This document shows, piece by piece, positions 46,861 through 64,000 of a stretch of 64,000 nt of DNA. Within the stretch, counting starts at the first letter, position 1. Each line of letters starts with the position of its first letter. Both the position numbers and the translations under genes were made by a program. The stretch comes from a virus. Its lineage: Duplodnaviria > Caudoviricetes. The stretch is taken from IMG/VR virus record IMGVR_UViG_3300021959_007005; one strand, 5' to 3'. The notes beneath the pieces are model-generated. The model was not told the DNA's origin, ran no database searches, and worked only from the letters and a program-made list of their open reading frames with translations.

Positions 46861-46862
46861 AA

Positions 46863-47537: not shown

Positions 47538-47553
47538 TAAATAATGCTATAAT
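47526..47553 (+). promoter_or_regulatory. Sigma70-type promoter
   Basis: TTGACA-N16-TATAAT, with TGC before the -10. Confidence 0.65.
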
Positions 47554-47581
47554 ATAATGGTAACCAGAACAGGAGTTCATT

Positions 47582-48790: not shown

Positions 48791-49095
48791 TGCATTGGGT
48801 AGTATGGTCATACGAAGAGTATAACAGATACCATTTTGAATATCGCCAGCAAGATATTCAAAATGCGTATTCTGAGAGTATGAAAGTTAAAGTTTTAGAG
48901 AGGTTTCTAAAATCTGATCTTGCAGATTTTTATGTGGACATGGGAATACCGTTAACAGTTGAAGAGCGTGTTACATTAGGATCAGATCCAAAAAAACTAT
49001 TGTTTGAAGTGATAGCACACACTATTACTGAAGAACAGACTAATCGAACGAGAGAAAAACGTATAACGGATAAATTAATTAATGCGTATAATTGA
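48787..49095 (+). CDS. Hypothetical protein
   Basis: ORF in the operon. Confidence 0.65.
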   Translation: MMHWVVWSYEEYNRYHFEYRQQDIQNAYSESMKVKVLERFLKSDLADFYVDMGIPLTVEERVTLGSDPKKLLFEVIAHTITEEQTNRTREKRITDKLINAYN

Positions 49096-49360
49096 ACAAC
49101 AATTTAGTTTAAGTGATGATGATCTAGGACTACTCGCTGGTACTAAAATTTTAGAGGCAATGCTTAAACAACGATTAATTATAGAATTTGATGAAACACC
49201 AAATATTGAAGAAATTGATTTTGCAGGATGTACTGGATTTTATCATGCAAGAGTATTAGGTAAAAAAAGATACCAATTTTGGTTTGAAAAAAAACAAGAT
49301 TATGATTGTTTTAGAGAAAATATGATAGCATATAAATTGTCCAATTCAATCGAATCCTAG
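49082..49360 (+). CDS. Hypothetical protein
   Basis: ORF in the operon. Confidence 0.65.
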   Translation: MRIIEQQFSLSDDDLGLLAGTKILEAMLKQRLIIEFDETPNIEEIDFAGCTGFYHARVLGKKRYQFWFEKKQDYDCFRENMIAYKLSNSIES

Positions 49361-49405
49361 ATGGATAAATAACTACGTATATAACTTATAAGGAATATAA
49401 AAAAA

Positions 49406-49657
49406 ATGAATGACGAAGTTCAAACAGATAACAATAAGCAAGAAGCTGAAGTGCCAACACCAGGTGATCAACCGTCTACGGAAAATGTAACATTGGGTGT
49501 TGGAGATCTTCAAAATGCAATTCAAATAATTGATATTGCAATGACCAGAGGTGCATTCCGTGCTAATGAAGCAGCGCAAATTGGTACAGTATTTGATAAA
49601 CTCACAAAGTTTGTTGCAAGTGTACAAAATAGCATGAATGCTGATGATAACACTTAA
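49406..49657 (+). CDS. Hypothetical protein
   Basis: Preceded by ATAAATA and an AAGGA RBS. Confidence 0.75.
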   Translation: MNDEVQTDNNKQEAEVPTPGDQPSTENVTLGVGDLQNAIQIIDIAMTRGAFRANEAAQIGTVFDKLTKFVASVQNSMNADDNT

Positions 49658-49669
49658 AGGAGAGTTATA

Positions 49670-50320
49670 ATGGCGAATAAAAAACATATTGGAAAAGTCA
49701 AGAACACAGGACTAAATTGTGTTGTTGTATTTAGAGCAATTTATGACGAGCGTGGGAATATCCAAGACGATACACACTGCTTGGTTCTTGAAACTGACAG
49801 ATTGCCAGACATGGAACATGACGATATTGTTCGTGTATGTGAAAGCATAAACGGGCAGGAAGCAAAAGAATTCTATGAAATTGCTTCACGCCAACAGTTT
49901 AGTGACGGTAGTCCAATGTTACAAAAATTACACAAAATGGGTTGGCTTAAAAAACATTCCACTGATAACATTTTAATGACACCAAATAGTAGTACTAGTG
50001 TTCTACTAAGTGAAGTTAACGAAATTATTAAAAAAAGTGCTAGTGGTATGTCGCCAAACGATATTAAAAATAGTATGGTTGATGACACAGACAGTGCGCC
50101 AAGATCACAAACTAGTCTAAATACACAACCTAGTGGTGAAGCAGTTCCTTCAAATGAAGGAGTACTTGACGATAGTGCGATTGCAAAAAGTATGTTAACA
50201 CAAGCAGAAACATTCCTGTCAGAAGCAGCAAGACTCAAAGAAGAAGCATTTACTATGGATCCAAGTTTAAAACCCAAGCGAGGACGCAAGCCGAAGGCTG
50301 TAGTTGATGCCAGTTCATAA
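49670..50320 (+). CDS. Hypothetical protein with C-terminal AT-hook-like motif
   Basis: AAGGAG RBS; ends in KPKRGRKPK. Confidence 0.75.
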   Translation: MANKKHIGKVKNTGLNCVVVFRAIYDERGNIQDDTHCLVLETDRLPDMEHDDIVRVCESINGQEAKEFYEIASRQQFSDGSPMLQKLHKMGWLKKHSTDNILMTPNSSTSVLLSEVNEIIKKSASGMSPNDIKNSMVDDTDSAPRSQTSLNTQPSGEAVPSNEGVLDDSAIAKSMLTQAETFLSEAARLKEEAFTMDPSLKPKRGRKPKAVVDASS

Positions 50321-50642
50321 AAGAGACAGAAACTTTCAAAATATTGTTCGTGATTTAAGTATTAGTAGTGTTCCAGCAGATTACATTCAATCGCTTAGTC
50401 TGATTACTATAGATGGAGATAAGATCACATTTCAAGGAGAAGATATTAGTTTAAATATTGAATCTGATAATCAAACTGACGTAGTTAGTCTTCTAATTGC
50501 TATGGTTGAAGAAAATGGTGATATTTCAGATGAAATAGCAGATGTTGAAATTATTATTGATTATAAAAAACTTGAAACCGATATTGCAGATCTTACCAAT
50601 AAATTATTAAAGGCAAATAAAAATGACAGTAAAACTAGTTAG
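50304..50642 (+). CDS. Acidic hypothetical protein
   Basis: ORF in the operon. Confidence 0.65.
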   Translation: MMPVHKRDRNFQNIVRDLSISSVPADYIQSLSLITIDGDKITFQGEDISLNIESDNQTDVVSLLIAMVEENGDISDEIADVEIIIDYKKLETDIADLTNKLLKANKNDSKTS

Positions 50643-51288
50643 CTATTCAAAAGCTACAGAAGACTTTGCAGCAGAAGGTCTATCAGATCTCCAAGAGCTT
50701 ATTGCATTTTGTGCAAAAGTATCAAACCCTTCGGCGCAGATTAATACTGAAACAAGTGAACGACTGATTAGATATCTAATTAAACACCAACATTGGTCAC
50801 CATTAGAGATGGTTAATGCTACACTTGAAATCAACACTACCAGAGACATTGCACACCAAATTGTGCGACATCGAAGTTTTGCATTTCAAGAGTTCAGTCA
50901 ACGCTACGCTAATCCAGCAGAGTTTGGTGAAATGTTTGTCACCAGAGAAGCACGCCTGCAGGACACTAAGAATAGACAAAACAGTGTAGAGATCGATAGT
51001 GACGAAGATATTCACTATGCTTGGGCTGATAAACAACAAGAAGTGATCGACAAAGCTCGAGAAGTATATGACTGGGCGATTGCCGCCGGTATTGCAAAAG
51101 AACAGGCAAGGGTCGTGTTGCCCGAAGGAAATACCAAGACAAGATTATATATGAATGGAACCATCCGCAGTTGGGTACATTATATTGACTTACGTGGTGC
51201 AAATGGTACACAAAAAGAACACATGGATATCGCTCATGCATGTGCTAAAGTTATTGCTGATATCTTTCCGCTTATGAACGAACTATAA
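50623..51288 (+). CDS. thyX: Flavin-dependent thymidylate synthase
   Basis: HWSPLE and RHRSFAFQEFSQRY motifs. Confidence 0.95.
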   Translation: MTVKLVSYSKATEDFAAEGLSDLQELIAFCAKVSNPSAQINTETSERLIRYLIKHQHWSPLEMVNATLEINTTRDIAHQIVRHRSFAFQEFSQRYANPAEFGEMFVTREARLQDTKNRQNSVEIDSDEDIHYAWADKQQEVIDKAREVYDWAIAAGIAKEQARVVLPEGNTKTRLYMNGTIRSWVHYIDLRGANGTQKEHMDIAHACAKVIADIFPLMNEL

Positions 51289-51298
51289 AGGAAAAGCT

Positions 51299-51880
51299 GT
51301 GGGCGTTTTTGAAACAGTAGTACTAAGTTACATAATTTATATGGCTGTTGCATTGTATGGAATCACACGTGGTTATCATAGATGCTTTAGTCATCGAGAG
51401 ATTAGTACATCAGTTGTACAAGAAACGCTCATGCTATATTGTGGACTACTGTGTGGGGTTAGAAGCCCGCTAGCATGGGCTGGCTTACATCGTATGCATC
51501 ACGCATATAGTGACACTGAACTAGACCCACACAGTCCCATACTAATGTCCAAATGGCGAGTGTTCTTTAGTGTGTACAAAGTACCAAATATACCAAGAAA
51601 ATTTATCAAAGACTTATTGCGCAATCCACGAGTTATGTTCTTTCACAAACACGGAAAAATTATATGGATTGCACATTTTGTAATCACTTATTTTGTATTT
51701 GGACCCATAGCTATTGCTGTAAACTTTTTAATAATCTTTTACAGTTATATTGGATACGGTGTACTCAACACGTTTGGACATGACAACAATGGTCCAGTTA
51801 ATAGGTTTTGGATTAATTTAATTGCACCGTTTGAGGGCCAACACAGAGATCATCATGAAAGAAGCCATATTAAATCTTAG
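51299..51880 (+). CDS. Membrane fatty acid desaturase-like protein (delta-9 type)
   Basis: His boxes HRCFSH, HRMHH and HRDHH; GTG start. Confidence 0.85.
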   Translation: MGVFETVVLSYIIYMAVALYGITRGYHRCFSHREISTSVVQETLMLYCGLLCGVRSPLAWAGLHRMHHAYSDTELDPHSPILMSKWRVFFSVYKVPNIPRKFIKDLLRNPRVMFFHKHGKIIWIAHFVITYFVFGPIAIAVNFLIIFYSYIGYGVLNTFGHDNNGPVNRFWINLIAPFEGQHRDHHERSHIKS

Positions 51881-52604
51881 CACTGCAATACGCACACCAG
51901 TATTACCAGAAGTAAAAGATACAATAAAACATATACCAATAGACTACGACGGTGTTGTAAAATACAGCACCAATATTTGTGAGTGGCTCAAGCCAGTAAT
52001 TGATCTCAGTAATTATCATGTGTATCCAAGAAATGGTATTACGGAAGGGTTAGACTGGTGGTACAACCAAGAATCCAGAAGTGTATACATGGATAACGGC
52101 GATTACCAATGGATAAATCCTAGGGGTAATATGTACGATGAAAGTGTAAAGTACCAAAGCATACCCAGTAGTATTGACGGAAACTGGAGAGCAACTACAG
52201 GCGAAATACTTGACCTTGCATATGTTGGCAGTACAAGTATACAAAAGATTGATCACGATGCAGATATAGTTTTTTACAGTTTGAGCAAAAGTTTTGGTGT
52301 ACGCAACATCAGAACTGGATGGATATTTACACGTATGCCAGATGCGAAACTAGAAGCACTTACTCACAGTGCAAAATATTACAACTACTATGCTCACAGT
52401 GTTGCAGAAAATATCATAAGTAACTATGACATAGACTATGTTCACAGAAGATTACACAGTCAACAAGTAGATGTATGCAAGAAACTTGATATTATAGCCA
52501 GTGACAGTGTGTGGCTTGCTACCAGCACACATGATGATTATAGTAAATTTAGACGTAACGGAAATGTAGCAAGAGTCTGTTTAGCAGGAGTATATGAATT
52601 ATGA
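51855..52604 (+). CDS. PLP-dependent aminotransferase-like protein (fold type I)
   Basis: DLAY and FYSLSKSFG..RTGW motifs; start probably at 51855. Confidence 0.7.
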   Translation: MKEAILNLSTAIRTPVLPEVKDTIKHIPIDYDGVVKYSTNICEWLKPVIDLSNYHVYPRNGITEGLDWWYNQESRSVYMDNGDYQWINPRGNMYDESVKYQSIPSSIDGNWRATTGEILDLAYVGSTSIQKIDHDADIVFYSLSKSFGVRNIRTGWIFTRMPDAKLEALTHSAKYYNYYAHSVAENIISNYDIDYVHRRLHSQQVDVCKKLDIIASDSVWLATSTHDDYSKFRRNGNVARVCLAGVYEL

Positions 52605-53212
52605 GAAAACACCAATTGCCAAGTATGGCTAATTTAAACTTAGATATTGATTTAAATAAATTGCAAGGAGAAATGATTAGACTTGCTGAAAAGTTTGTAG
52701 ATGTACGCACTGCGAATCCAATGTTGTGTGATAATCACATGGAACTTGTTGATAGTGTATACGATAACTTTGAACAAATTAATCTAACAACACCTAGTGA
52801 AATATTACCTTACGAAGCAAGTATTAAAGAACGTATCAGGCGCAGAGAAGAACACTTATACAATATTCCTACACCAGAATACAAAGGCAGTTACTTTGAA
52901 GAAATAGTAACACAACTTAAAGCACCTGCAAGTCGTGTGCGTATTACAAAACTAGCACCAGGAAAAACTATTCCGTTTCACGTAGACTATGATGTGAACT
53001 ATGCTGTTAGATGCATTGTTCCTATTTACGGAGACAAGAATGTTGTTAATTTGTTTAGGCGTGACAGGGAATTAGAAGCATATAATTTAGAAAACGGCAA
53101 TGCATATTTTCTAAACATAGGATATCCACATGCTGTTGTTAACATGAGTAAACATGCTAGAATTGCGCTGATGTTTAGTTTGGATGGTACAGATGATCTG
53201 GAAGCTCTGTGA
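52601..53212 (+). CDS. Asp/Asn beta-hydroxylase-family Fe/2OG oxygenase
   Basis: RVRITKLAPGKTIPFHVD, YPHAVVN and RIALM motifs. Confidence 0.8.
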   Translation: MRKHQLPSMANLNLDIDLNKLQGEMIRLAEKFVDVRTANPMLCDNHMELVDSVYDNFEQINLTTPSEILPYEASIKERIRRREEHLYNIPTPEYKGSYFEEIVTQLKAPASRVRITKLAPGKTIPFHVDYDVNYAVRCIVPIYGDKNVVNLFRRDRELEAYNLENGNAYFLNIGYPHAVVNMSKHARIALMFSLDGTDDLEAL

Positions 53213-53675
53213 AATAGATCCATATATAGCTGACATCGAGGATCTGTTTTCTAAAAATGCCGATCACAAACATGCACAGAATTATAGTAAGTATCCGTTG
53301 TTTCAGCACACTGTATTTGCTCGTATGGGATGGGATCAAGGGCGTATGGTTTACTACAGTGCAGCCGTAGAGCGTCCAGAGTATAACGGAAGTATAAGAA
53401 TAATTTGCAGACATACTAGAGATAGAGAATACAACTTTGGAGGATGGCGGGCTGATTTAAAGCGTGGACTAGAAACATTAGACAAGCTAACCCTTCGTGC
53501 CAAAGACCTGGGATATACTGATATATGGGTAAGCAGAGAAGAATCACCCGAGCTACTACACTACTTTGCTGAACATAGTAAATACTCATGGAATGTAACG
53601 CACCAACCTATGCCTGGAAGCGAAAACTGGAATACAGGAGTACAACATCAATATGTCTTACGAATACAAACTTAA
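53184..53675 (+). CDS. Hypothetical protein, possibly GNAT-like
   Basis: GLETLDKLTLRAKDLGYTDIWVSRE resembles a GNAT motif A/B region. Confidence 0.4.
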   Translation: MVQMIWKLCEIDPYIADIEDLFSKNADHKHAQNYSKYPLFQHTVFARMGWDQGRMVYYSAAVERPEYNGSIRIICRHTRDREYNFGGWRADLKRGLETLDKLTLRAKDLGYTDIWVSREESPELLHYFAEHSKYSWNVTHQPMPGSENWNTGVQHQYVLRIQT

Positions 53676-54405
53676 ACTAATACTACTAGCAAATCATCTA
53701 GCACTAGTACTTGGCTTACTATATGCTGACTGGACATGGCTTGCTTTAAGTTTTGTAGGTTGGATATTATTTGGTAAAGTAGGAGGTGAAATTGCACTAC
53801 ATAGATATCTATGTCATAACAGTTTTAAAACAGGGTGGATTAGACATCGTTTGCTGATAGCTCTAAGTGTATTCAATTGTTTTGGATCTCCTGTGGCTTG
53901 GTGCGGCATACATCGTAAACATCATGCTAAAAGTGAAGGACCAGATGATCCACACGGCGGTCAATCAGGTTGGCGTATATGGAGTACATTTTGGGAACCA
54001 TTTACAATCGAAAGAAGATATGTAGTTGACCTTGTACGTGACCCTACTATCAAACTAGTACATAAACATTATCTAAAAATACTTTTAACTAGCTATGCAG
54101 TGGTAGCACTTATTGATTGGCGTATTGCGGTATTTTTGATCAGCGTTCCTGCTACACTAACATTTCACAGTGCTGGACTAGTAAATGTGTTTTGTCACAA
54201 GTGGGGATACAGACACTACGATACACCAGACCATAGCACAAACAACACATGGGTTAACTTGTTAACACTTGGTAGTGGATTACATAACACACATCATGCA
54301 AAGCCAAAGGCGTGGGATAATCGTGTTAAATGGTGGGAAATAGATTTACCTGCTATAATCATAAAATATTTGTTAATCAATGACTCAAAAACTCAAACTA
54401 CTTAA
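53653..54405 (+). CDS. Membrane fatty acid desaturase-like protein (delta-9 type)
   Basis: His boxes HRYLCH, HRKHH and HNTHH; DDPH motif. Confidence 0.88.
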   Translation: MSYEYKLKLILLANHLALVLGLLYADWTWLALSFVGWILFGKVGGEIALHRYLCHNSFKTGWIRHRLLIALSVFNCFGSPVAWCGIHRKHHAKSEGPDDPHGGQSGWRIWSTFWEPFTIERRYVVDLVRDPTIKLVHKHYLKILLTSYAVVALIDWRIAVFLISVPATLTFHSAGLVNVFCHKWGYRHYDTPDHSTNNTWVNLLTLGSGLHNTHHAKPKAWDNRVKWWEIDLPAIIIKYLLINDSKTQTT

Positions 54406-54892
54406 TCAAATAGCTGAAAAATACAACTACAGCCTTAGTCACTTTTTAGTGCCTACAACTCAACGACAGGGATTACAAGGAGTGGGTAGATTCAGTGACG
54501 ACAATATTTCTCCGGATACATTAATAGCTATTATAGGTGGCGTCATAGTAGATGAGCCAGATCAAATGATATGCATGCCAATTGGTAATAAATTATATTT
54601 ACATCAAGTACACTCATTGTTTAGAGCAACAACTAATCACAGTTGTGAACCAAACTGCCGCATACGTGGATTTAATGAACTTGTTAGTTTTATAGACATC
54701 AGTCCAGGCGAAGAACTTACAATTGATTATGGCACAGTTAGTGTTGGTGACGGAAAAACTATTATTGATAAGTGTACGTGTGGTAGTAAATACTGTAGAG
54801 CCACAATACGTACAGATGATTATAAACAATTGCCTAAAGTATTACTTGCTGCTTATCCAAGATATATGAGAGACAAAAATGTGGATGATTGA
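54380..54892 (+). CDS. SET-domain methyltransferase with post-SET
   Basis: NHSCEPNC, GEELTIDY and CTCGSKYC motifs. Confidence 0.88.
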   Translation: MTQKLKLLNQIAEKYNYSLSHFLVPTTQRQGLQGVGRFSDDNISPDTLIAIIGGVIVDEPDQMICMPIGNKLYLHQVHSLFRATTNHSCEPNCRIRGFNELVSFIDISPGEELTIDYGTVSVGDGKTIIDKCTCGSKYCRATIRTDDYKQLPKVLLAAYPRYMRDKNVDD

Positions 54893-55457
54893 TTTTGAAC
54901 ATATAGGTGATCATGTAATACATGTGTTTGATTACAAAGATTACAATCAACAACAACTACTAGACGAAGCGTATAGTAGACAGTACGAGCCTTTTGTTGT
55001 GCCAATGGATGACGAAAACAGTGATCCAAATTGGTTTGAGAAAGACAGTGACGTGCAGATGAATAATTGGACACAAGCTAGATTTTTTCAAGAGCAAAAA
55101 GACGGCAGTGATCATTTAATTAACTATCCTGAAACAAAAAGGGTAACTAAATACTTTGCTAGTATAATACAAACCAATGATATTAGACCCAGGTATTATA
55201 AACTAGAAGCAAACACCAGCGTTCCTGAACATGTAGATCACAATACCAAATGTGGTGTAAATATCATTTTAAATGACAATGCAGGTCCAGTAGAGTTTGT
55301 TGGTGTTGGCTTGTTTGATTATCGTGTTGCACTGTTGAACACCAGTGAATTACATTGTGTACCTGCACATCCACAAGAAAGAATACTATTAAAATTAAGC
55401 ATAATGGACGTAGACTATGACACTGCTAAAAAGAGGATTAAACAAAATGTATCATGA
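54879..55457 (+). CDS. Fe/2OG oxygenase-like protein
   Basis: KLEANTSVPEHVD, ELHCV and RILLKL motifs. Confidence 0.7.
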   Translation: MWMIDFEHIGDHVIHVFDYKDYNQQQLLDEAYSRQYEPFVVPMDDENSDPNWFEKDSDVQMNNWTQARFFQEQKDGSDHLINYPETKRVTKYFASIIQTNDIRPRYYKLEANTSVPEHVDHNTKCGVNIILNDNAGPVEFVGVGLFDYRVALLNTSELHCVPAHPQERILLKLSIMDVDYDTAKKRIKQNVS

Positions 55458-56085
55458 ACATGCTGACCCTATTAACTTTAAAATATGCGAGTCAATGCCA
55501 GTTGAATGGCATAATAAACTAAATGAAATATATGACAGATGTACTACACATATACTAGAATTTTCGTTCCATGCCAACCATGGAGACTTTGTTTGTGATC
55601 AAATATGGTGTGAAACACAACAAGATCAGCAATGGATTATTGATACTATACTTCCATACTATGGCATAGACTATGAAAATGTTGCTGAACTAGACTACAG
55701 TAATGCAGTAAGCAGTGATAGAAGCGGAAGTTTTACTGAAGGGTTTGCGCCTCCTTATCCAAAAAACAGCATCAACTTTACACGTTTTGTAGCAGGTAAA
55801 GCTGCTATTATGCAACACAATGCTGGTGTGGATCATGTATTATGCAAGCTCAATGTACCAGTTAAGAACATTGAAGCAGGAACATGTCGTTGGATTGACA
55901 CACAAGAAGGTTGGAATTACAAAGATAACACTGCACTATTACTAAACGTGCAAGCGGATCACACTGTGGACGGTTTAGAGGACCTAAAAGAAGATCGGGC
56001 ATTCCTTAGTATTGCGCTTAAAACAACTTTTGCAGAAAGTATAGCAGATGATAAAGTCTTACGATCTATACACAAACAAAAATAA
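55447..56085 (+). CDS. Fe/2OG oxygenase-fold protein with HxA site
   Basis: GKAAIMQHNA aligns with HxD of neighbouring paralogs; distal ADHTVD; start probably at 55447. Confidence 0.55.
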   Translation: MYHEHADPINFKICESMPVEWHNKLNEIYDRCTTHILEFSFHANHGDFVCDQIWCETQQDQQWIIDTILPYYGIDYENVAELDYSNAVSSDRSGSFTEGFAPPYPKNSINFTRFVAGKAAIMQHNAGVDHVLCKLNVPVKNIEAGTCRWIDTQEGWNYKDNTALLLNVQADHTVDGLEDLKEDRAFLSIALKTTFAESIADDKVLRSIHKQK

Positions 56086-56551
56086 ATTGTGGGACATATA
56101 TCGTAGGTGTACTCGCAGTGAAGATTACTATAATTTAAACGTAGCAAGTACCACAAATGTTTTTATTGACAATCCTGAGGATTGTGAGTATATAGAACAA
56201 AATATTGTTGAGCCATTGGGTATTGATATACAGTGGTTAAACAATCAATATGACGACAGTGTAGGATATAACTTTAATGTTGTCAAGCCCACAGGCTTTG
56301 TAAAGCCTCACAGAGACGTAAACAGTACTAAAGTAAATATTTTATTAAACCAAAAAACACTTGCACCATTTTTGTTTGTGGAAACACAACAAAAATACTA
56401 TTACGAACACCCAGTATTACTGGATGTGAGTCAACTACACACTGTTGATAATTGTGCTAGCATAACTAAAGATAGAGTAACACTGCAATTATTTTTAACA
56501 AAACCATATGATGAATGTGAAAGGATGATAAATGAAAATAGAAGATATTAA
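56048..56551 (+). CDS. Fe/2OG oxygenase-like protein
   Basis: VKPHRD, QLHTVDN and RVTLQL motifs. Confidence 0.7.
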   Translation: MIKSYDLYTNKNKLWDIYRRCTRSEDYYNLNVASTTNVFIDNPEDCEYIEQNIVEPLGIDIQWLNNQYDDSVGYNFNVVKPTGFVKPHRDVNSTKVNILLNQKTLAPFLFVETQQKYYYEHPVLLDVSQLHTVDNCASITKDRVTLQLFLTKPYDECERMINENRRY

Positions 56552-57509
56552 AAGTAGTAGCGGATATACCGTAGCTGCAAGAGTACTAACACCATATAAA
56601 GATATGAAGGAACAAGACTTTATTGATCTTGTACGTGAGTATGGTACTGTGGTGTGGAAAAAAGACACAGCTACGGTAGACGAATATATTGATTTTCAGA
56701 TGCGAGTAGGTTATCATCAAGCAGCAGAAATCTGGTGTAATGACGACAAGTATCCACAAATTTATCGTGTTACCAATCTTAAAGTAAAAGACGAACACGA
56801 ATCAGAAGGTTTGTTTGGACACGGAGAACTAGACTGGCACTGTAATATATTGTTTACACCTGATAGTGAGGAAATGGTGGGCTTACGGGCAGTTGAAATA
56901 CCCAAAGGAAGTCAAACAATTATGGCCAACAGTATTCCTTTTTGGAATAATCTAAGTGAAGAAAAGCGTGAATTATATGACACACTGCATTTGAGTATCA
57001 CAAATAAAATGGAAGACACGTATGAAAATCGTCTAGCACACTATGTACTACCTACTGCAGAGCTCAAAGACTTTGACAAAAAACGTGCAAGCAGAGCTAT
57101 ACAAAGAAGTTTAAACTATGATCAACCTGAAGACAAATTTGCTGAGCCACGTTTTGAAAAAACGAACACTCTTAAAATGATCAGTAGACATCCACTGGGT
57201 ACCAAAGGTGTATACTTTCCACATTTAAATCTAAGTTATATATGTGACAAAGATGGAAACAAACTGGAAAACCATCGTGAAATTTATGAAGAAATTAAAG
57301 CAGAATATATTGATAGTGATCAATATCATTATGCACATGAATGGGAAGTTGGAGACATTTGTTTTATGGAACAGCTAACAGGCGTTCATAGACGTAATAA
57401 TGTATGGTTAGAAAAAGGATTAGATCCAGAAACTGCCAAACGTGAATTACAACGTACTAGCTTCTGGTACAAAACACCTTATAGACTGCACACAGAACGA
57501 TGCATCTAA
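56532..57509 (+). CDS. TauD/TfdA-family dioxygenase
   Basis: LDWH, G.QT..AN, HPLG, WEVGD..F...HRR and RELQR motifs. Confidence 0.8.
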   Translation: MKIEDIKSSSGYTVAARVLTPYKDMKEQDFIDLVREYGTVVWKKDTATVDEYIDFQMRVGYHQAAEIWCNDDKYPQIYRVTNLKVKDEHESEGLFGHGELDWHCNILFTPDSEEMVGLRAVEIPKGSQTIMANSIPFWNNLSEEKRELYDTLHLSITNKMEDTYENRLAHYVLPTAELKDFDKKRASRAIQRSLNYDQPEDKFAEPRFEKTNTLKMISRHPLGTKGVYFPHLNLSYICDKDGNKLENHREIYEEIKAEYIDSDQYHYAHEWEVGDICFMEQLTGVHRRNNVWLEKGLDPETAKRELQRTSFWYKTPYRLHTERCI

Positions 57510-58543
57510 GTAGCACTTTTTGTAGTAAGGCATGGAGTGATGTAAACATAGACTTTGCTCGACGAAGTGTTAGACATTGTTGTAAAAGTGTGAATGAATA
57601 TATGCCCGAGCAACTTGATACTGAATTTTTCAATGCAAGTCCTGGTATATTAGAACGCCGTGAAGCATTGCAAGCAGGCATAGAACATACAAATTGCAAA
57701 CACTGCTGGAGCAGTTATAGAAAGTCAGGCGGAGCCTACAGAGATGTTTACAACACAGGCAAGATTGAACCTATAAAATTTGTAGAAGTGAAACTAGACA
57801 ACTTGTGTGATATGACATGTCAGTATTGTGATGCTCGTAGTAGTCATAAAATTGCACAAAAACTAGGAATTAAACAATCAGTACTACAAGCTGATGACCA
57901 AGATTACGCTGTGTTTTTAGATTGGTTGCAAACACTTAAAGATCCTTATACACTAAGTTTTCTTGGCGGTGAAGTTACATACAGCAAAAACTTTGTAAAG
58001 TTTGCAGAACTTATGTTGCAAAAATTATATAAGCAAGACTTATTCATTTCTATTATGACAAATGCAAATACCCTACCAAAACAACAACAGAAATTTTTTG
58101 AGCTATTAGATCGATTTCCTAACAACTGGCGTGTTATTGTTGTAATTAGTAATGAAAGCACTGGCAACGTTAGTGAAACTGTTAGAGAAGGATTAAGTTG
58201 GCCAAGATTTGAAACTAATGTACGTAATTACTTTGCAAGAACACAACTAGAGTTTATAGGATTGAGTCCAACACTCAGCACACTTACTGTGGATCATTTC
58301 TCAGACTATATGTACTGGGTGGGTGAACTTGCACGTGAATACAATATACAACTTTATATCACAGGAAGCAGTGTAGATCATAGTGGTCCATTAAGTTTAC
58401 AATACTGCGACAACACAAAACAATCTTTGGTAAACAACTGGCGCAAACTGTTCAATCAGTATGCAGATGTCATTATGAATTTAGATGACTGTTTAATTTG
58501 GTTGGAAAAAGTACGAAAAGAAATTACAAGCAATGCTGTTTGA
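57500..58543 (+). CDS. Radical SAM protein with N-terminal Cys-rich (SPASM/twitch-like) domain
   Basis: CDMTCQYC, LGGEV and TNAN motifs; N-terminal FCSKAW..HCC..C.HC. Confidence 0.85.
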   Translation: MHLSSTFCSKAWSDVNIDFARRSVRHCCKSVNEYMPEQLDTEFFNASPGILERREALQAGIEHTNCKHCWSSYRKSGGAYRDVYNTGKIEPIKFVEVKLDNLCDMTCQYCDARSSHKIAQKLGIKQSVLQADDQDYAVFLDWLQTLKDPYTLSFLGGEVTYSKNFVKFAELMLQKLYKQDLFISIMTNANTLPKQQQKFFELLDRFPNNWRVIVVISNESTGNVSETVREGLSWPRFETNVRNYFARTQLEFIGLSPTLSTLTVDHFSDYMYWVGELAREYNIQLYITGSSVDHSGPLSLQYCDNTKQSLVNNWRKLFNQYADVIMNLDDCLIWLEKVRKEITSNAV

Positions 58544-59213
58544 GTACATCAAATGCATCACTATGTACAGATAAAAAGAATTGATATGTACTTGAATCGC
58601 CTTGACTGCGAGCTGTGTGTATTAAGCTAGTGTCTACAATATACATCCTGCCTGGTTCAATATCTCCATGCCAATCTACCATGTCAGGTTCCATACTACT
58701 AACTGTTCCTGGTGTAGGAGCTCTGCGAAATTCTCTATCAAATTGAAACTTTACATTATCTGGATCTGTAGTTCCCCATAGTCTCAGTATTGGGCTAGGA
58801 AACCATGTATCGCTATGTGGATAAAAGAATGATTCACTATCCCATCTCAGTATACAACTACGACACCAATAATCATCAAAACATTTAAGAGGATCGAATA
58901 CACTGTGTTCAAACACTGGAGTTTTTTGTGTAAAGTCTCTGTCAAACACCCAGTCTTCTTCTTCTAATGGTTCTAGCCATTCATCTAATGGATAACACAC
59001 AGGCTCTGGATTGTTGTACATACTGCCGTTTTGATTTACCAATGGTAATCCGTATCTAGGAAAGTGTTTTTTCTTTTCACCCCAACTGCGAAATGCATAT
59101 TGGTGCTGTTGCATAAGACTTTCAAACTTATCGGGATCGATTACTATGTCTGTCGCTACAACAGGAGAAGTGTGCAATTGTAGATATTTGTCTAGTTCTA
59201 TCATAGCAGACAA
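58524..59213 (-). CDS. Fe/2OG oxygenase-like protein
   Basis: FYPHSD, GRMYIVDTSLIHTA motifs. Confidence 0.7.
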   Translation of the reverse strand: MSAMIELDKYLQLHTSPVVATDIVIDPDKFESLMQQHQYAFRSWGEKKKHFPRYGLPLVNQNGSMYNNPEPVCYPLDEWLEPLEEEDWVFDRDFTQKTPVFEHSVFDPLKCFDDYWCRSCILRWDSESFFYPHSDTWFPSPILRLWGTTDPDNVKFQFDREFRRAPTPGTVSSMEPDMVDWHGDIEPGRMYIVDTSLIHTARSQGDSSTYQFFLSVHSDAFDVLKQHCL

Positions 59214-59755
59214 GCAACCATGTGTATGCGATCTTCGTTACTGCCATTAAATGCTGTATGATAGCATTTTTTAGTTTCAGTCCAATACCATTTGTTTTTT
59301 TCTAAATGCTCTACTTCTTTTTCAATTACCATGTAGCACCCAAACTGTGTTTTGATAGGATAGTGTATTCTGTTGTTGTAGTCATAATGCCAGCTCATTG
59401 CATATCTAGGATTTGTACGCATCAGTCTTACTCTGCCTACAGTATAATCATTAGTAAGAGCAGTATATAATTGTTCAAACTGTGTGCCTGCAAACACACT
59501 GCACAGTTTAGTAAAATCTTGTTCACGTAGTGCAGTTTCACGTTTAGGTACATGCACTCCATTTTCTGTGTCACTGGCACGGGCCCAATCTAAATCCAAA
59601 CTACCTACTCCTGCATAAGGACTGTCATTGTCGGGTGTAGCATTGATACAGATTTGATTCATGTGTTGCCAACTTAAAACGTTGTTGTGCAACATCTGTT
59701 CTAGTTCTTGATGAACATCTATACTAGGAAGATCTTTTAACTGTTTAAAATGCAT
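59201..59755 (-). CDS. Asp/Asn beta-hydroxylase-like Fe/2OG oxygenase
   Basis: GRVRLM..MSWHYD..RIHYPI and HTAFNG..RIH motifs. Confidence 0.78.
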   Translation of the reverse strand: MHFKQLKDLPSIDVHQELEQMLHNNVLSWQHMNQICINATPDNDSPYAGVGSLDLDWARASDTENGVHVPKRETALREQDFTKLCSVFAGTQFEQLYTALTNDYTVGRVRLMRTNPRYAMSWHYDYNNRIHYPIKTQFGCYMVIEKEVEHLEKNKWYWTETKKCYHTAFNGSNEDRIHMVACLL

Positions 59756-60375
59756 CAGTAATGTTTTATTTTTATGGGTTCTTTTGGAATAGAATAGAAA
59801 ATTTTATCGTTGTCAGCATGATGTATGCGTCTATTCAAGTTAGGATTTTTATGACCCACCCCCATAAGCAATAATATCTTGCGGTCTGTTTGTAGTATCT
59901 CTTTTATTGGTTCTGGATCTAAGCATTGACAGCACCCTGTACTATATCCTAGCATTGTGCTAGTAAGATTTAAGTATCCACTTGCGATACCTAATGCAAT
60001 ATTGGCATCTCTTTGGATTATTGTCTGGTCACTGTTTTCATCTAGTTCATTTTTATCAAGCACTCTAGAACTTGACTCAGCACTTGTAAACACAAATAAA
60101 ATATTTGCTAGTACTTGGCTGTTTGTAATTATTTCCTGTTCTTCATTGAACATTCTGAATCCAAAAGTGTAATTGTGTATCTGTTCTATGATGTTTCTAT
60201 CTTGTACAACACTCAAACCATAAAATGCATTATTTTGTTTGCTAGGGCATTGCGTTGCTGCATGAATCATTAGATCAATATCAGTTTGAGGTATAGGTTG
60301 TGATAAGTCCCAGTTACGTTGACAATGTTGACTTTTAATTACGCTTTTATGTATATTTGTGTGTATGTCTAACAT
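59755..60375 (-). CDS. Nitroreductase-family flavoprotein
   Basis: CQRNW, CPSKQN, DANIALG.A..LGYSTGCC and LMGVG motifs. Confidence 0.8.
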   Translation of the reverse strand: MLDIHTNIHKSVIKSQHCQRNWDLSQPIPQTDIDLMIHAATQCPSKQNNAFYGLSVVQDRNIIEQIHNYTFGFRMFNEEQEIITNSQVLANILFVFTSAESSSRVLDKNELDENSDQTIIQRDANIALGIASGYLNLTSTMLGYSTGCCQCLDPEPIKEILQTDRKILLLMGVGHKNPNLNRRIHHADNDKIFYSIPKEPIKIKHY

Positions 60376-60384
60376 GGCGTATTC

Positions 60385-60663
60385 CTAAAAAAGTTCGTTT
60401 GTGGTTTCAATGATAGTAAAGTTTGTATTGTCTACACCGTCTGCCATTTTTGTACCTAGTAGCGTAAAATATTCATTGCATTCTGTTTCGTTATTAAAAG
60501 TTAGCCACGTAATAATATTGTCAGCGTCATCTGGATCTGCATTACTTCCTGAATCTAATATTTTTCCATCGGCTACCCAGTCGTCAAAGACAGCAGTTGC
60601 TTCCGTGTTTAAAATATTTTCTGCTGAATCGACTTGAATTTTTAAAGTTCTTTTGTATGCCAT
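60385..60663 (-). CDS. Small acidic hypothetical protein
   Basis: GGAGG RBS and ATAAATA motif upstream on the minus strand. Confidence 0.75.
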   Translation of the reverse strand: MAYKRTLKIQVDSAENILNTEATAVFDDWVADGKILDSGSNADPDDADNIITWLTFNNETECNEYFTLLGTKMADGVDNTNFTIIETTNELF

Positions 60664-60690
60664 TTAATTACACCTCCACTATATTGATAT

Positions 60691-61803
60691 TTATGCCTTT
60701 CGTTTTGGAATCTTACTATCAGCACTACTAACACAATTGTCACTAATACAAACTCTAGGCTTATCAAATAATTTAAATCCTGTTTCAATATTACCAAGAG
60801 GGACGTCTGCACAACTATAACTGCGTTTGATACTTCCGTCAGGCTCTCTGATAATGATTCCACTGTATCCTGCATTACAACTCCATCCCTTAAACTCATT
60901 GAAGTTGAAAGCATTAAACCGTTCTGCTTGGTCCATGTACCATTTCTTGCCTGTAGAGTCTGTAAACTCTACTTGCATGTGCCATGGCACACTCTTGTCA
61001 TTCTCACCTATTGCGTAAGGCGGCAATTCGAAACTTGGCCGTGGACGATCCGCCCATTTGCGTTTCGATTCAGTATACGCCATTTGAGGCATACCGTTCC
61101 ACAATCGCTGTAGCATTTCATCTGTGTAACCGTCCACGACTCTAGACGCCGTTGGATCTGATTGTGGCTTGAGGGTAACGTTGATTCCTTGCTCGTGGAA
61201 GAACAATGCGTTTTCCCAGTCCCTCTCAAACCAGTTTGGAACCATAACCATATTGATTGTAACTTGAACATCATGCTCCTGACACAAGATTAGTTTATCT
61301 GCAAAGTCTTGTAACTTCTCAGTAGTATTTAAATGTTCTGTGTGTAAACTAGCGGTTATACTAGCTCTATGGAAGGGTTTTACACGTTCTACATAATCCT
61401 CATGCCACTTCATATTGCGTGACATATTAGTTGTCATATGAACACTAGTATAATTTGTGTTTAATATATCGCTGGCAAGGTGTTGTAGGATGTCAAGGTA
61501 GCCGGGATGAAAGGTAGGTTCTCCCCCAGACAGGGAGAAGTGGAAACTATTGAAGCCGTTAGCTCTTGCTTGGGATTTGATTTCATCCACTGTATGCAAG
61601 CAGAGCTCAGTAGGTCGGTGGTCTTTACGGTCGGAACGGGCGTAAGGCCAACAGTACGAGCATTTGTAGTTGCAAAATCTTCCGAGCAGCCAACTAACAG
61701 TAAACAAGTCGCGATAAAGCAAAGTCCTTTGCCCAACGCTGACGATATCGTCAAAGGGTATTTTAGTAAAATCATATTCACTCCATTTTAAGTCTTCTGT
61801 CAT
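60691..61803 (-). CDS. Radical SAM protein with C-terminal SPASM/twitch-like Cys motif
   Basis: CNYKCSYC, SGGEPT, WSCNAG..YSC..C...CVSSAD; start moved to 61803 (ATGA overlap). Confidence 0.88.
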   Translation of the reverse strand: MTEDLKWSEYDFTKIPFDDIVSVGQRTLLYRDLFTVSWLLGRFCNYKCSYCWPYARSDRKDHRPTELCLHTVDEIKSQARANGFNSFHFSLSGGEPTFHPGYLDILQHLASDILNTNYTSVHMTTNMSRNMKWHEDYVERVKPFHRASITASLHTEHLNTTEKLQDFADKLILCQEHDVQVTINMVMVPNWFERDWENALFFHEQGINVTLKPQSDPTASRVVDGYTDEMLQRLWNGMPQMAYTESKRKWADRPRPSFELPPYAIGENDKSVPWHMQVEFTDSTGKKWYMDQAERFNAFNFNEFKGWSCNAGYSGIIIREPDGSIKRSYSCADVPLGNIETGFKLFDKPRVCISDNCVSSADSKIPKRKA

Positions 61804-62354
61804 AATTTTGCAAATAACTCCAAAAATCGTTCTGCGCCATTTGCGACATTTTTTGACCATTCTTGGGCAGCATTTTCATCTGCCATATCACTAATGTATT
61901 TAAAACTTCTAAAAGGTATATTATATTCTTGTGCAACATATGCCAGTGCATAACCTTCCATGTCTACACAGTCAATGTCTGCTTCCACAAACCATTTGTC
62001 TGGACCCATAACAAAACTATCACCAGTACCACACCTTAATTGCATAACTGGACTCGCTGTACCAATATCACTGAGTATAGGATCGCTAAACGGTACTACA
62101 CCCCTATCAACCATAGGCATTGCCATCATATCACGCTGTACAAATGTACCTATCTCACGCATGCCTTTGACCATAGGATTAAGCCCACCTGCTGTGCCGT
62201 AATTGACAATTAGATTTGGCTTAGTGCTTTTACATAGTGCTTGTGCCAGTCGTGTTGCAGCTTGTACTTTACCAACACCTGTGTAAACTACTGTGGTATT
62301 TTTAGGAGGATTTGGAAGTTCTTCTTCCAATGCTACAACTAATAATATATTCAT
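61800..62354 (-). CDS. mtnN: MTA/SAH (5'-deoxyadenosine) nucleosidase
   Basis: GVGKV, GTAGG, GTGDSF, VDMEG and KYISD.A motifs. Confidence 0.85.
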   Translation of the reverse strand: MNILLVVALEEELPNPPKNTTVVYTGVGKVQAATRLAQALCKSTKPNLIVNYGTAGGLNPMVKGMREIGTFVQRDMMAMPMVDRGVVPFSDPILSDIGTASPVMQLRCGTGDSFVMGPDKWFVEADIDCVDMEGYALAYVAQEYNIPFRSFKYISDMADENAAQEWSKNVANGAERFLELFAKL

Positions 62355-63310
62355 AATTCTTCCTTGATAAATTTATCTTGTTTCATTTGTTTGCATACTT
62401 GCATACATCGTGGAACAGGATTGTCGCTATCCCAACTCTGTTGAATATTTTGCCATACAGTACTATGTATTGCATCTTTTATGCTAACATTTTGTAAATT
62501 AATTGTATCAATATAATTGTTGTCCAACAACAGTTGTTCAAATTGATCTTTCACTTCACCTGTTACACTATATTCCATCATCTTGCTATTTAAATGACAA
62601 CAAGGAATAACATTGCCCATATGATTTATGAATATACGTTTTTGATTACCGTACTTACAACTAATATACGGTATTTCTGGCGCATTGTCAATCTTTTCAG
62701 TCTTGGCTGACTTGACTCCGCCAGTTGTGTCTTTTCTGTGACTGATAATAGTTTTAAAACTTTTAAATCCTTCAGTAGTTGCTTTGGCTTTTGCTTCTTC
62801 TAACTGATGTTCATTGTGTTCAAACACAATAAACTGCCAGTTACTTCTACCACCAGCGGCATTGAACGCACGATAGTTTTGTTCTACTTTTGTAAAATTA
62901 CTGCCTTGTCTATATACTTCACTTAGTTCATCACTGCCGTCAATACCCCAAGTAACAGCATGACTAGGCGGTAATATACCAGCTAGTTCAGTCCACCATT
63001 TTGTAGTACGCAAACTGCCATTAGTAGCAATGTTTATGTGAGCATTCCAGTCAGCAAAGTGACGTATAATATCAAAAAACTGTGGGTGTGTTGTAGGTTC
63101 GTCCACACTGCCGCAAAAATTAATAATTTTAATACTAGGAAATTGTCCACGCACAAATCGTTCACGTATAGTATCTATGGTAATGTAGTGTTTATTGAGT
63201 ATTTTATCAGCTTGTTTGCTAATAATTCTAAAACAACCTTTGCATTCTATGTTACAATAACTAGTAAGCTCTATGTCTAGCCATTCTATAGTATCCATGC
63301 TCCACATCAT
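62351..63310 (-). CDS. Radical SAM/SPASM protein
   Basis: CNIECKGC, CGSVDEP, TNGS and C-terminal GNVIPCC..C..C motifs. Confidence 0.9.
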   Translation of the reverse strand: MMWSMDTIEWLDIELTSYCNIECKGCFRIISKQADKILNKHYITIDTIRERFVRGQFPSIKIINFCGSVDEPTTHPQFFDIIRHFADWNAHINIATNGSLRTTKWWTELAGILPPSHAVTWGIDGSDELSEVYRQGSNFTKVEQNYRAFNAAGGRSNWQFIVFEHNEHQLEEAKAKATTEGFKSFKTIISHRKDTTGGVKSAKTEKIDNAPEIPYISCKYGNQKRIFINHMGNVIPCCHLNSKMMEYSVTGEVKDQFEQLLLDNNYIDTINLQNVSIKDAIHSTVWQNIQQSWDSDNPVPRCMQVCKQMKQDKFIKEEL

Positions 63311-63852
63311 TGTCTCTCCTGCATGGGATCAATACTTAAATTGTTTACACAGTATCCTTGTGGCTGATCCAATACCCATTTGATATATTCAGCAGCTACA
63401 TCTGTGTGCATACATACCCTGTCAGGATGCTTATGTTGATTATTGTCGAGTGTTCCAAAACTAATCAGTGTTATCTTAGGACCACTGTGCCAAACTCCTA
63501 TTAGTCCCAGACTATTACAGTAATCAGCTAGCGCACGTTTCTCTGCATTGTACAACCAACTTGTGCCTTTACTAGTTCTGTCTGTTGTACTGCCTACACA
63601 TACAATATGTGCGTCATTGTTGGCTGTTTTACACGCCTTGTATACTAGATCCAGTAGCACAGTTTGATGGAAGCGCCATAGTGCGCTATTGATAATGATT
63701 TGACTGTGTTTAGCAGCTTCTTGTGCAAACCACTCCATATCACTGTTGTCAGTAAGGTTCACACCTGTGCTTCTACTCACAAACTTTGCATTAGGATACA
63801 GTTTGTGTATACTGTGTGCTAGTCCTTGTCTTGAATTGCCTGTTACTATCAT
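63307..63852 (-). CDS. Short SDR-like Rossmann-fold protein
   Basis: IVTGNSRQGLA, IINSA, VGS and Y...K motifs. Confidence 0.72.
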   Translation of the reverse strand: MIVTGNSRQGLAHSIHKLYPNAKFVSRSTGVNLTDNSDMEWFAQEAAKHSQIIINSALWRFHQTVLLDLVYKACKTANNDAHIVCVGSTTDRTSKGTSWLYNAEKRALADYCNSLGLIGVWHSGPKITLISFGTLDNNQHKHPDRVCMHTDVAAEYIKWVLDQPQGYCVNNLSIDPMQERQ

Positions 63853-64000
63853 CCAAATATACTCATGTCTTCTATATGTTGTGGCATAATTTCCATTAAT
63901 GCATCAAGCTCAGTTGCTTTGGGTGTACACATACCACATCCACAATGCTTACCTGGTCCCAGTGGACACGTAATAACAGGCATTGTTTTATTTTCCAAGT
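63849..64000 (-). CDS. 3' end of a Cys-rich protein, probably radical SAM (partial)
   Basis: Hand translation ...LENKTMPVITCPLGPGKHCGCGMCTPKATELDALMEIMPQHIEDMSIFG*. Confidence 0.6.
   Translation of the reverse strand, partial: LENKTMPVITCPLGPGKHCGCGMCTPKATELDALMEIMPQHIEDMSIFG

Follow-up and report, generated by a model that had tools for sequence, protein, structure and literature searches.

A variable enzyme island in a marine jumbo phage joins a mobile desaturase, PLP enzyme and hydroxylase trio to the tail of a radical SAM operon

What can a phage do with a dense block of tailoring enzymes, if no synthase is at hand that would provide the scaffold to be tailored? This question is raised by positions 51299-64000 of IMG/VR virus record IMGVR_UViG_3300021959_007005 (Duplodnaviria; Caudoviricetes), a stretch of 64,000 nucleotides (nt) of phage DNA which is referred to here, at its full length, as the window. 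An earlier note had described these 13 kb, termed the island in the following, as an undescribed set of tailoring enzymes without a scaffold synthase. The block is real, and all of the claimed enzyme classes could be located in it: two desaturases, a pyridoxal 5′-phosphate (PLP) enzyme, seven proteins with the fold of iron- and 2-oxoglutarate-dependent (Fe/2OG) oxygenases, a SET methyltransferase, radical S-adenosylmethionine (SAM) proteins, a nitroreductase, a short-chain dehydrogenase/reductase (SDR) and a nucleosidase for methylthioadenosine or S-adenosylhomocysteine (MTA/SAH). It is, however, not one pathway held within these 13 kb. The architecture of the region and the linkage of its genes, both described below, lead us to prefer, tentatively and with somewhat less than even confidence, the following reading as a whole: the 13 kb are the variable end of a flexible enzyme island of more than 50 kb, this island is composed of three separately inherited parts, and its enzymes would tailor lipid- or sugar-linked small molecules that are taken from the primary metabolites of the host.

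The island contains 19 credible genes and the 3′ end of a twentieth, arranged in two convergent blocks which overlap by 20 nt at their 3′ ends. The gene order of the plus arm is g01, g02, g03, g04, g05, g06, g07, g08, g09, g10, g11, and the minus arm is transcribed in the order g19, g18, g17, g16, g15, g14, g13, g12. At nearly all junctions start and stop codons overlap or the gap is below 30 nt, which bears out the overlaps reported earlier. The two convergent operons proposed in the earlier note exist as two convergent blocks, but the plus-strand gene run continues a strand block that starts at window base 1, and the minus arm runs past the end of the window. By any signal looked for, the plus arm is not a separate operon: scans of the island for promoters and terminators yielded no excess of sites over shuffled sequence, and the T4 late motif TATAAATA was not found in the island. 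Likewise, of the at least three and probably four radical SAM proteins that had been counted, g11, g16 and g18 are present, and the fourth is real, but only its last ~150 nt (63849-64000) lie inside the window. The genes of the island and the two markers to its left are:

49670..50320, plus strand: u1, a conserved 216-amino-acid (aa) protein and the left slot anchor; no Pfam family, homologues 1.6-10.4 kb from g16 in 20 relatives
50623..51288, plus strand: ThyX thymidylate synthase, the left island border (PF02511, E 2e-44)
51299..51880, plus strand: g01, a di-iron protein of 193 aa that resembles a short membrane desaturase (PF00487, E 1e-6; three His boxes)
51855..52604, plus strand: g02, a mini fold-type I PLP enzyme of 249 aa from a virus-specific family (weak Pfam match; structure model with pLDDT 90.6, aminotransferase fold)
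52601..53212, plus strand: g03, a small Fe/2OG hydroxylase of the AspH type and the gene with the best conservation in the plus arm (PF05118, E 2e-6)
53184..53675, plus strand: g04, a 163-aa protein, possibly GNAT-like (no Pfam match; weak GNAT lead from an Atlas feature search)
53653..54405, plus strand: g05, an SCD1-like desaturase of 250 aa (PF00487, E 2e-14; PDB 4ymk, E 7e-12)
54380..54892, plus strand: g06, a SET-domain methyltransferase (PF00856, E 5e-8)
54879..55457, plus strand: g07, a small cupin with HxD...H (six-protein alignment A1; no Pfam match)
55417..56085, plus strand: g08, a cupin-like protein whose first metal motif is HxA (alignment A1, weak in that region)
56048..56551, plus strand: g09, a small cupin with HxD...H (alignment A1)
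56532..57509, plus strand: g10, a TauD/TfdA-family protein with HxN in place of HxD (PF02668, E 7e-21)
57500..58543, plus strand: g11, a radical SAM protein of an N-terminal twitch family (NF033640, E 3e-39; CxxxCxxC in the sequence)
58524..59213, minus strand: g12, a cupin with HxD...H, the last gene of the minus-strand operon (alignment A1)
59201..59755, minus strand: g13, a small Fe/2OG hydroxylase (model with pLDDT 96.7; PDB match Cpz10, 7v4m)
59755..60375, minus strand: g14, a nitroreductase-fold flavoprotein (PF00881, E 5e-6)
60385..60663, minus strand: g15, an acidic 92-aa protein with no assigned role and no family match
60691..61803, minus strand: g16, the core radical SAM enzyme of 370 aa and the right slot anchor (PF04055, E 8e-16)
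61800..62354, minus strand: g17, an MTA/SAH-type nucleosidase (PF01048, E 5e-22; NF004168, E 2e-33)
62351..63310, minus strand: g18, a radical SAM protein with SPASM domain (PF04055; PF13186, E 8e-5)
63307..63852, minus strand: g19, a short SDR-like protein (weak NF038213 match; TGxxxG and YxxxK motifs)
63849..64000, minus strand: terminal part (3′) of a further radical SAM gene for 400 aa, which runs beyond the window and corresponds to L087:8260-9462; the g18 protein of that contig is identical to the one encoded here

Relative to the closest relative, L086, the ratio of non-synonymous to synonymous substitutions (dN/dS) is 0.025-0.17 for g03-g10, g12 and g16, at synonymous divergences (dS) of 0.56-2.4. 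These genes are therefore real and constrained. In marine metatranscriptome data, Logan contigs of three studies match both arms (window 46000-64000) at 99-100% identity, but with DNA carry-over possible and neither strand nor expression level given, they are not counted as proof of transcription.

The linkage of genes is clearest around g03, for which 123 viral stretches were found (the 80 that were kept are 72-99% identical). When 26 distinct loci were selected by g03 alone, each with 8 kb or more of sequence to either side, all 26 proved to contain a desaturase and a mini-PLP enzyme; a TauD-like gene was present in 16, and a g04 homologue (51-63% identical) and the core gene g16 in 10 each. 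The order of these genes varies across loci, with g01-g02-g03-g04, g01-g03-g10-g02 and g01-g02-g10...g03 all being found and some parts inverted. A gene set that is kept while its order scrambles is the usual signature of functional linkage, and the trio of desaturase, mini-PLP enzyme and g03 hydroxylase therefore carries this signature. It also crosses phage families: among 50,697 phage records, one phage, the cultured Pelagibacter phage Mosig EXVC030M, has homologues of both g02 and g03. Further g03 homologues (72-81% identical) lie on two short contigs of metagenome-assembled genomes, one assigned to Phycisphaerales (L101) and one to Ca. Paceibacter (L102), which are probably mis-binned phage DNA. 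No description of the trio, of its spread across phage families or of the HxN form of the TauD fold was found in the literature.

Most other genes of the island behave differently. The right anchor g16 has more than 599 matching viral stretches (80 kept, 78-93% identical) and 4825 protein clusters at E <1e-5, and a tblastn search with it against the 50,697 phage records gave no match. The island proteins were mapped on 80 g16-anchored loci, of which 20 hold both slot anchors. In these 20, the distance between g16 and the conserved block u1-ThyX/ThyA-DUF2201-AAA ranges from 1.6 to 10.4 kb, and the slot of the window is the largest. In 10 loci (e.g., L020, L043, L059) the slot measures only 1.6-2.8 kb, so that the plus arm and g12-g15 cannot fit there, and the radical SAM array is still kept beyond g16. 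In some relatives g12-g15 and the plus arm are replaced by other genes, and the content of the slot is non-syntenic among close relatives. Even the border gene has been exchanged, with the unrelated ThyA taking the position of ThyX in many relatives (L020, L033, L086 and others), a case of analogous gene displacement. In one Logan contig (L091, 6899-15239), a g18 protein identical to that of the window is followed by g17, g16 and then by a wholly different cassette, which includes other cupins, a PLP enzyme and a radical SAM-family protein of the B12 type with 507 aa; the exchange downstream of g16 looks like a recent one.

A mosaic was also observed within one genome pair. L086 has kept almost the whole plus arm in the same order, with identities of 93-96% for g03, g08 and g10, 55% for g02, 53% for g13, 46% for g01 and 36% for g15, and it holds no orthologue of g11, just paralogues of 24-32% identity. 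The orthologue groups of g04 and g06-g09 are confined to the species of the window and one relative (g06 has weak matches of 29-31% in some other loci), and near-identical copies of g10 occur on two contigs only. The earlier note had named independent assortment across genomes as part of the outcome that would speak against its pathway. This is largely what is seen, given genes restricted to two lineages, short slots, replaced cassettes and identities from 36 to 96%, and yet the trio stays together in the 26 g03-anchored loci.

The minus arm belongs to a compartment of its own. A census of enzyme families in 88 loci (1953 open reading frames, ORFs) yielded 563 ORFs of the radical SAM superfamily, 91 AspH-type cupins, 65 PP-loop proteins (QueC-like, SGGxDS; in 52 loci, e.g., L087:6097-6960), 62 nitroreductases, 60 SDR-like proteins (48 loci), 34 mini-PLP enzymes, 33 desaturases and 32 TauD-like proteins. 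Adjacency was compared with 1000 shuffles in 56 non-redundant loci, with the relatedness of loci left uncorrected. Nitroreductase, PP-loop and SDR genes adjoin radical SAM genes more often than in the shuffles, with three counts exceeding all 1000 of them, and the PP-loop genes are scattered through the radical SAM arrays. AspH-type genes are depleted beside radical SAM genes (16-17 observed vs 29-33 expected). Desaturase and TauD genes adjoin each other 6 times (1.4 expected from the shuffles), and g12 adjoins AspH genes 7 times (1.2 expected).

Public contigs whose g18 protein is identical to that of the window allowed the minus-strand operon to be traced for ~27 kb past position 64000. Upstream of g19, on the same strand, it contains four more radical SAM genes and a PP-loop protein, followed by another three radical SAM-type genes, of which two lie on the opposite strand, and by proteins of 74, 385 and 245 aa. 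Next come a carbamoyltransferase and a small kinase resembling adenylylsulfate (APS) kinase, a HAD-like protein with a DxDGT motif, which is encoded on the opposite strand, and after it a SIS sugar isomerase and an HNH protein, and then two uncharacterised proteins, a ribulose-phosphate 3-epimerase and one more uncharacterised protein. Beyond the operon lie a UDP-glucose/GDP-mannose dehydrogenase on the opposite strand, a B12-binding radical SAM gene and another array, with nine or more genes of the radical SAM type, so that the enzyme region reaches roughly window coordinate 105,000 and spans more than 50 kb in all. The 13 kb of the island are the edge of this region and do not stand alone. 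The sugar genes between the two radical SAM arrays (~window 82,000-91,000) resemble a set for the activation of heptose or another sugar: the SIS isomerase, the HAD-like protein as a phosphatase, the small kinase and the carbamoyltransferase on L093:2847-5328, and the epimerase and the dehydrogenase on L095:5959-8547.

Large relatives carry 12-20 radical SAM genes each, clustered beside g16; one 146-kb fragment has g16 only. In a search of representatives at 50% identity, distant full-length relatives of g16 turned out to be fused to glycosyltransferases. One of them, P0226, has the domain order GT2, radical SAM, TPR, radical SAM and stands in a bacterial locus of the flagellin-glycosylation type, with DegT, an aminotransferase, an ATP-grasp protein, a GNAT protein, giant multi-GT2 proteins and a flagellin. 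Another, P0236, has the order methyltransferase, GT1, radical SAM, GT2 and adjoins CMP-sugar-type and NTP-sugar transferases. The upstream sugar genes and these fusions support the idea that the radical SAM compartment would act on a sugar-based substrate. The absence of a scaffold is in part explained as well, because sugar-phosphate and nucleotide-sugar enzymes lie in and just beyond the minus-strand operon. The claim that the island has no non-ribosomal peptide synthetase (NRPS), polyketide synthase (PKS) or obvious precursor still holds: none was recognised, and neither the 20 ORFs of the island that were scanned with Pfam nor the annotated part of the extension gave an NRPS or PKS domain.

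For the plus arm, the enzymes themselves are the main guide. Both desaturase sequences have three His boxes (HxxxxH, HxxHH, HxxHH), and for g05 all three are matched in the alignment to SCD1 (PDB 4ymk). Both are short, g01 with 193 and g05 with 250 aa compared to ~320-340 aa for SCD1, so that g05 is about a quarter shorter. The presence of desaturases implies host fatty acyl chains as a substrate. Neither a cytochrome b5 nor a ferredoxin was found in the Pfam scan of the island, and g14 here and an FMN reductase in Mosig are no more than candidate electron donors.

In the g02 family, which is almost purely viral, D120, S142xSK145 and R153 are conserved among 23 sequences, with K145, D120 and R153 being invariant or nearly so. 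The nearest PDB structures to the g02 model are the tryptophan aminotransferase TAA1, alliinase, C-S lyases and HisC. A role as alpha-oxoamine synthase of the sphingolipid type was considered for g02 and is not favoured: none occurs among the 50 structural matches listed, which are all aminotransferases, C-S lyases or other class I/II enzymes.

Among the small cupins, H123, D125 and H166 (numbering of g13) are invariant in 43 relatives of g03 and g13, and HxD...H is present in g07, g09 and g12. The best PDB match of the g13 model, a double-stranded beta-helix, is Cpz10 (7v4m; E 8e-11, TM 0.76/0.83), with proline hydroxylases next and human AspH only at rank 29. In bacteria, relatives of this cupin fold frequently occur as fusions with sulfotransferases. 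In g08, which is 93% identical to its counterpart in L086 with a dN/dS of 0.05, the HxA in place of HxD follows a halogenase-like pattern in a weakly aligned region of A1. A profile of 19 phage sequences of the g10 family matched PDB entries with E-values from 1e-26 to 1e-13, among them TfdA (4e-26), TauD (3.5e-22) and AtsK. Enzymes of the TfdA, TauD and AtsK type act on small anionic molecules. The metal motif of g10 itself is H103-C-N105 and departs from the canonical HxD; within its family (alignment A4, n=19) HxN occurs in 12 sequences, HxD in 4 and HxA and HxH in 1 each, and the distal His and the Arg residues are invariant.

In the minus arm, g17 would likely remove 5′-deoxyadenosine, and g19 is assigned to the SDR proteins by its motifs and the weak NCBIfam match. 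PDB sequence searches with g16, g02, g10, g18 and g14 returned nothing or marginal matches. A kinship of g04 with the GNAT gene of Mosig was considered and dropped, with no similarity between the two (E 0.46). The structural neighbours of g05, g13, g10 and g02 favour small-molecule and lipid chemistry over protein modification, and with the exceptions of the SET and SPASM domains the enzyme likenesses of the island thus point in this direction.

Put together, the preferred reading assigns the genes to three parts. The first is the tail of the minus-strand operon (g19 to g12), which is anchored by g16 and comprises radical SAM enzymes, their nitroreductase, SDR and PP-loop helpers and the 5′-deoxyadenosine-type nucleosidase; it would most likely edit a sugar-based molecule. 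The second is the mobile trio (g01/g05, g02 and g03), often in company with g10 or g04, whose most likely substrate would be an amphiphilic small molecule with a fatty acyl chain and an amino-acid-like or anionic head group, for example an aminolipid or glycolipid of the envelope. Its acyl chain would be desaturated or hydroxylated and its head group altered, with TauD-like, GNAT-like and methyltransferase partners being optional. The third part may be seen as lineage-specific filler and consists of the SET methyltransferase, three further cupins and g11. With sugar phosphates, acyl chains and amino acids of the host as starting materials, a scaffold synthase would not be needed. The two compartments may contribute to one product, such as a decorated glycolipid, or to separate ones. 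A sulfur-centred variant of this scheme is an unproven lead, to which belong the C-S lyase-like g02, the sulfonate and sulfate-ester dioxygenase relatives, an SsuE-like reductase and a peroxiredoxin in Mosig, the sulfotransferase fusions and the APS-kinase-like gene.

Several points weigh against this reading. Its product and its substrate class are inferred. By Pfam, no glycosyltransferase was found in the window or among the 10 unannotated extension proteins scanned, and in five large relatives GT2 genes are either absent or located 60-90 kb from the radical SAM array. With its canonical Asp metal ligand missing, g10 may not be a normal hydroxylase. Proteins or peptides are the classical targets of SET, SPASM and AspH-type domains, and tight gene packing is normal in phages and no proof of a shared pathway. 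Finally, the lack of correction for relatedness affects the co-occurrence test as well as the adjacency tests.

Among the alternatives, the one that survives best, unlikely as we consider it, is that these are unrelated auxiliary metabolic genes gathered in a recombination hot spot, each acting alone on a host target such as membrane fluidity, the 2-oxoglutarate level or the redox state. The extreme shuffling of gene content fits this idea well, and there are precedents for both gene types, with several 2OG oxygenase genes of no assigned role in T4-like cyanophages (PMC3037559) and phage desaturases known, by the title of PMC5776448, as stand-alone auxiliary genes. Genes that act alone would, however, hardly account for a trio that is complete in every g03-anchored locus in spite of order changes and that crosses phage families, nor for the excess of desaturase-TauD and g12-AspH neighbours over the shuffles.

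Somewhat less probable still is the post-translational maturation of a fibre or other virion protein by hydroxylation, methylation and radical cross-linking, in the manner of ribosomally synthesised and post-translationally modified peptides (RiPPs). The SET protein g06, the SPASM domain of g18 and the AspH-type Pfam matches would suit such a scheme, and so would Nif11 leader domains, which occur in 14-18% of cluster members of some bacterial cupin-fold relatives. Fibre genes are also not far away. In Mosig the tail-fibre genes follow directly downstream of the cassette in the same orientation, and in 8 relatives fibre-like proteins of 350-530 aa with the N-terminal domain Mtd_N (major tropism determinant) are encoded at the slot edge (L039:17333-18619, L058, L031, L041, L047, L082, L065, L060); the window itself contains neither Mtd_N nor any other tail-fibre gene. 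What is missing from the protein scheme is a conserved small substrate gene. The candidate g15 was rejected as a conserved partner, either as RiPP substrate or as RiPP recognition element (RRE), with no family found and poor conservation (8 loci only, and 36% identity and a dN/dS of 0.5 relative to L086). No ORF with CHxS, with an Asn-Cys repeat or rich in Cys was found in real frames of the window and ~36 kb of extension, and Pfam and NCBIfam scans of the island gave no match to PqqD/RRE. Moreover, membrane desaturases and an aminotransferase-fold enzyme have no place in this scheme, and the substrates of the best structural neighbours of g13 are small molecules.

A bolder extension of the preferred reading, which we regard as quite improbable, would have the radical SAM/sugar operon and the trio make one new, heavily edited amphiphile during infection without any NRPS or PKS, for example a lipo-amino-sugar, a sulfated or carbamoylated glycolipid or a nucleoside-like compound. 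It would act on the cell envelope or on competitors and would employ an unprecedented HxN form of the TauD fold.

Close to this in standing, and highly doubtful, is one concerted pathway in which all ~19 genes act in sequence on one macromolecule or metabolite. The tight overlaps, the purifying selection and the one relative with nearly the whole plus arm in order speak for it, but it conflicts with the restriction of g04 and g06-g09 to two lineages, with the ten relatives whose slot is too short and whose radical SAM array is nevertheless kept, and with the cassette replaced behind an identical g18 and the mosaic identities within one genome pair. Hypermodification of DNA or nucleotides, in which oxygenases, PLP and radical SAM enzymes would decorate a base or a nucleotide-linked group, is the least credible of all. 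In its favour, the island starts directly behind ThyX, on the strand that also carries the replication and nucleotide genes, the phage has PurZ-like genes, and uridyl-nucleoside antibiotic pathways bring together enzymes of the Cpz10, TauD and PLP types (PMC9814697). Against it, ThyX is swapped for ThyA in relatives as expected of plain thymidylate synthesis, the DNA-binding, kinase and transferase genes typical of base hypermodification were not found in the island, and the desaturases argue for lipid chains.

The preferred reading, a variable island end with a mobile trio, has to be seen against the genome in which it stands. The DNA polymerase of the window is of the T4 type, with the jumbo phages Phosso, Atu_ph07, CBB and GAP32 as nearest isolates (44-48% identity). 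A 78-kb IMG/VR record that is 93-99% identical to the window over matched pieces has a completeness rating of 22%, which implies a genome of several hundred kb. The source is an abundant, uncultured marine jumbo phage with a T4-like DNA polymerase, and a cyanobacterium is unlikely as its host. A megablast search of the island against the 50,697 phage records gave no match. Elsewhere in the window, a PurZ-like adenylosuccinate synthetase (27655-28860; phrog_1211, E 4e-120) suggests 2-aminoadenine in the phage DNA, and an additional 2OG-Fe(II) oxygenase (PF13759, 46863-47537) lies outside the island, between an AAA ATPase and a DUF2201 metallopeptidase/VWA gene.

The genes of the island are carried by phages that abound in the sea, with g16 in thousands of clusters and g03 in 123 viral stretches, and a function for any of them was found neither in the literature nor in library matches. 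Several elements of the picture have been known before, namely hypervariable host-recognition islands, radical SAM cassettes and multi-copy phage 2OG oxygenases (PMC7029224, PMC3037559).

How does the island compare with systems that are already described? At the level of single proteins, g11 matches NF033640 (N_Twi_rSAM) over its full length, but its score of 135.4 bits is below the curated cut-off of 170, and the family itself, of which relatives carry many copies, is without known function. The caprazamycin beta-hydroxylase Cpz10 (7V4M; PMC9814697), dependent on alpha-ketoglutarate, shares 20% identity and a similar size (~170-185 aa) with g13. Cpz10 acts on the aminoacyl group of a small molecule; the likeness of g13 is one of fold only, with no sign of a uridyl nucleoside substrate or of the rest of the pathway. 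At the level of the enzyme set, LpxO/OlsC/OlsD, OlsE and OlsG (review PMC12971839) offer a parallel: there, too, an AspH-family Fe/2OG hydroxylase is combined with a membrane di-iron enzyme and an N-methyltransferase, and the substrate is an acylated amino-acid or sugar lipid. Unlike these enzymes of lipid A and ornithine-lipid modification, the cupins of the phage are short and have no membrane parts; the phage di-iron enzyme is of the SCD/PF00487 family and not of the OlsE family, and neither an OlsB nor an OlsF acyltransferase was found. This likeness may thus indicate a possible way of working, not membership of these families.

Among phages, T4-like cyanophages carry several small 2OG-Fe(II) oxygenase genes per genome with no assigned substrate (Sullivan et al. 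2010, PMC3037559). The proposal made in that article is a modulation of 2-oxoglutarate and NtcA, whereas the oxygenases of the island are linked to desaturase, PLP and radical SAM genes. Hypervariable host-recognition islands in which glycosyltransferases and "radical SAM cassettes" occur are known from pelagimyophages (Zaragoza-Solas et al. 2020, PMC7029224). There and in cyanomyophages, the host recognition cluster lies between VrlC and gp14 together with tail-fibre genes. The slot of the window differs from it in that it belongs to a jumbo phage, contains no fibre gene and no Pfam-detectable glycosyltransferase, and is flanked by nucleotide-metabolism genes and the core radical SAM gene. 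The oxygenase/desaturase/PLP module is not described in PMC7029224.

The closest counterpart of the island is the cassette Mosig_00072-Mosig_00094 of Mosig EXVC030M (MT647606.1; PMC7892664), which falls in this very host recognition region, between the fibre genes and VrlC. Like the island, it combines an oxygenase/desaturase/PLP arm with a radical SAM/sugar arm. The first arm contains, in this order, an AspH-type hydroxylase, a desaturase, a mini aminotransferase, an FMN reductase, a peroxiredoxin, a hypothetical protein, a TauD-like protein, a methylase, a GNAT-type protein and a second AspH-type hydroxylase. Identities to the window are 68% for Mosig_00072 and g03, 42% for Mosig_00079 and g02, 32% for Mosig_00080 and g01 (31-32% for the desaturases) and 25% for the TauD-like proteins. 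The divergent arm, which extends up to VrlC, contains nitroreductases, radical SAM genes, a DegT aminotransferase, a carbamoyltransferase, a weak GT8 match and an epimerase. The differences are nevertheless considerable. The arms of Mosig diverge and those of the island converge; the cassette of Mosig lies inside the tail-fibre/VrlC region of a 141-kb phage of the Kyanoviridae, with one small hypothetical gene between it and the fibre genes; it has the FMN reductase and the peroxiredoxin in addition and a class I methylase instead of the SET protein; and no orthologue of g16 was detected in it. A term search of the genome announcement (PMC7892664) revealed no mention of the cassette enzymes. 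The trio is present in Mosig all the same, a phage that can be grown on the SAR11 strain HTCC1062, and a linked three-gene unit with swappable extras is a small, testable system instead of a vague island. If the preferred reading is true, this unit may represent a new way for phages to rewrite the surface or lipids of the most abundant bacteria of the ocean.

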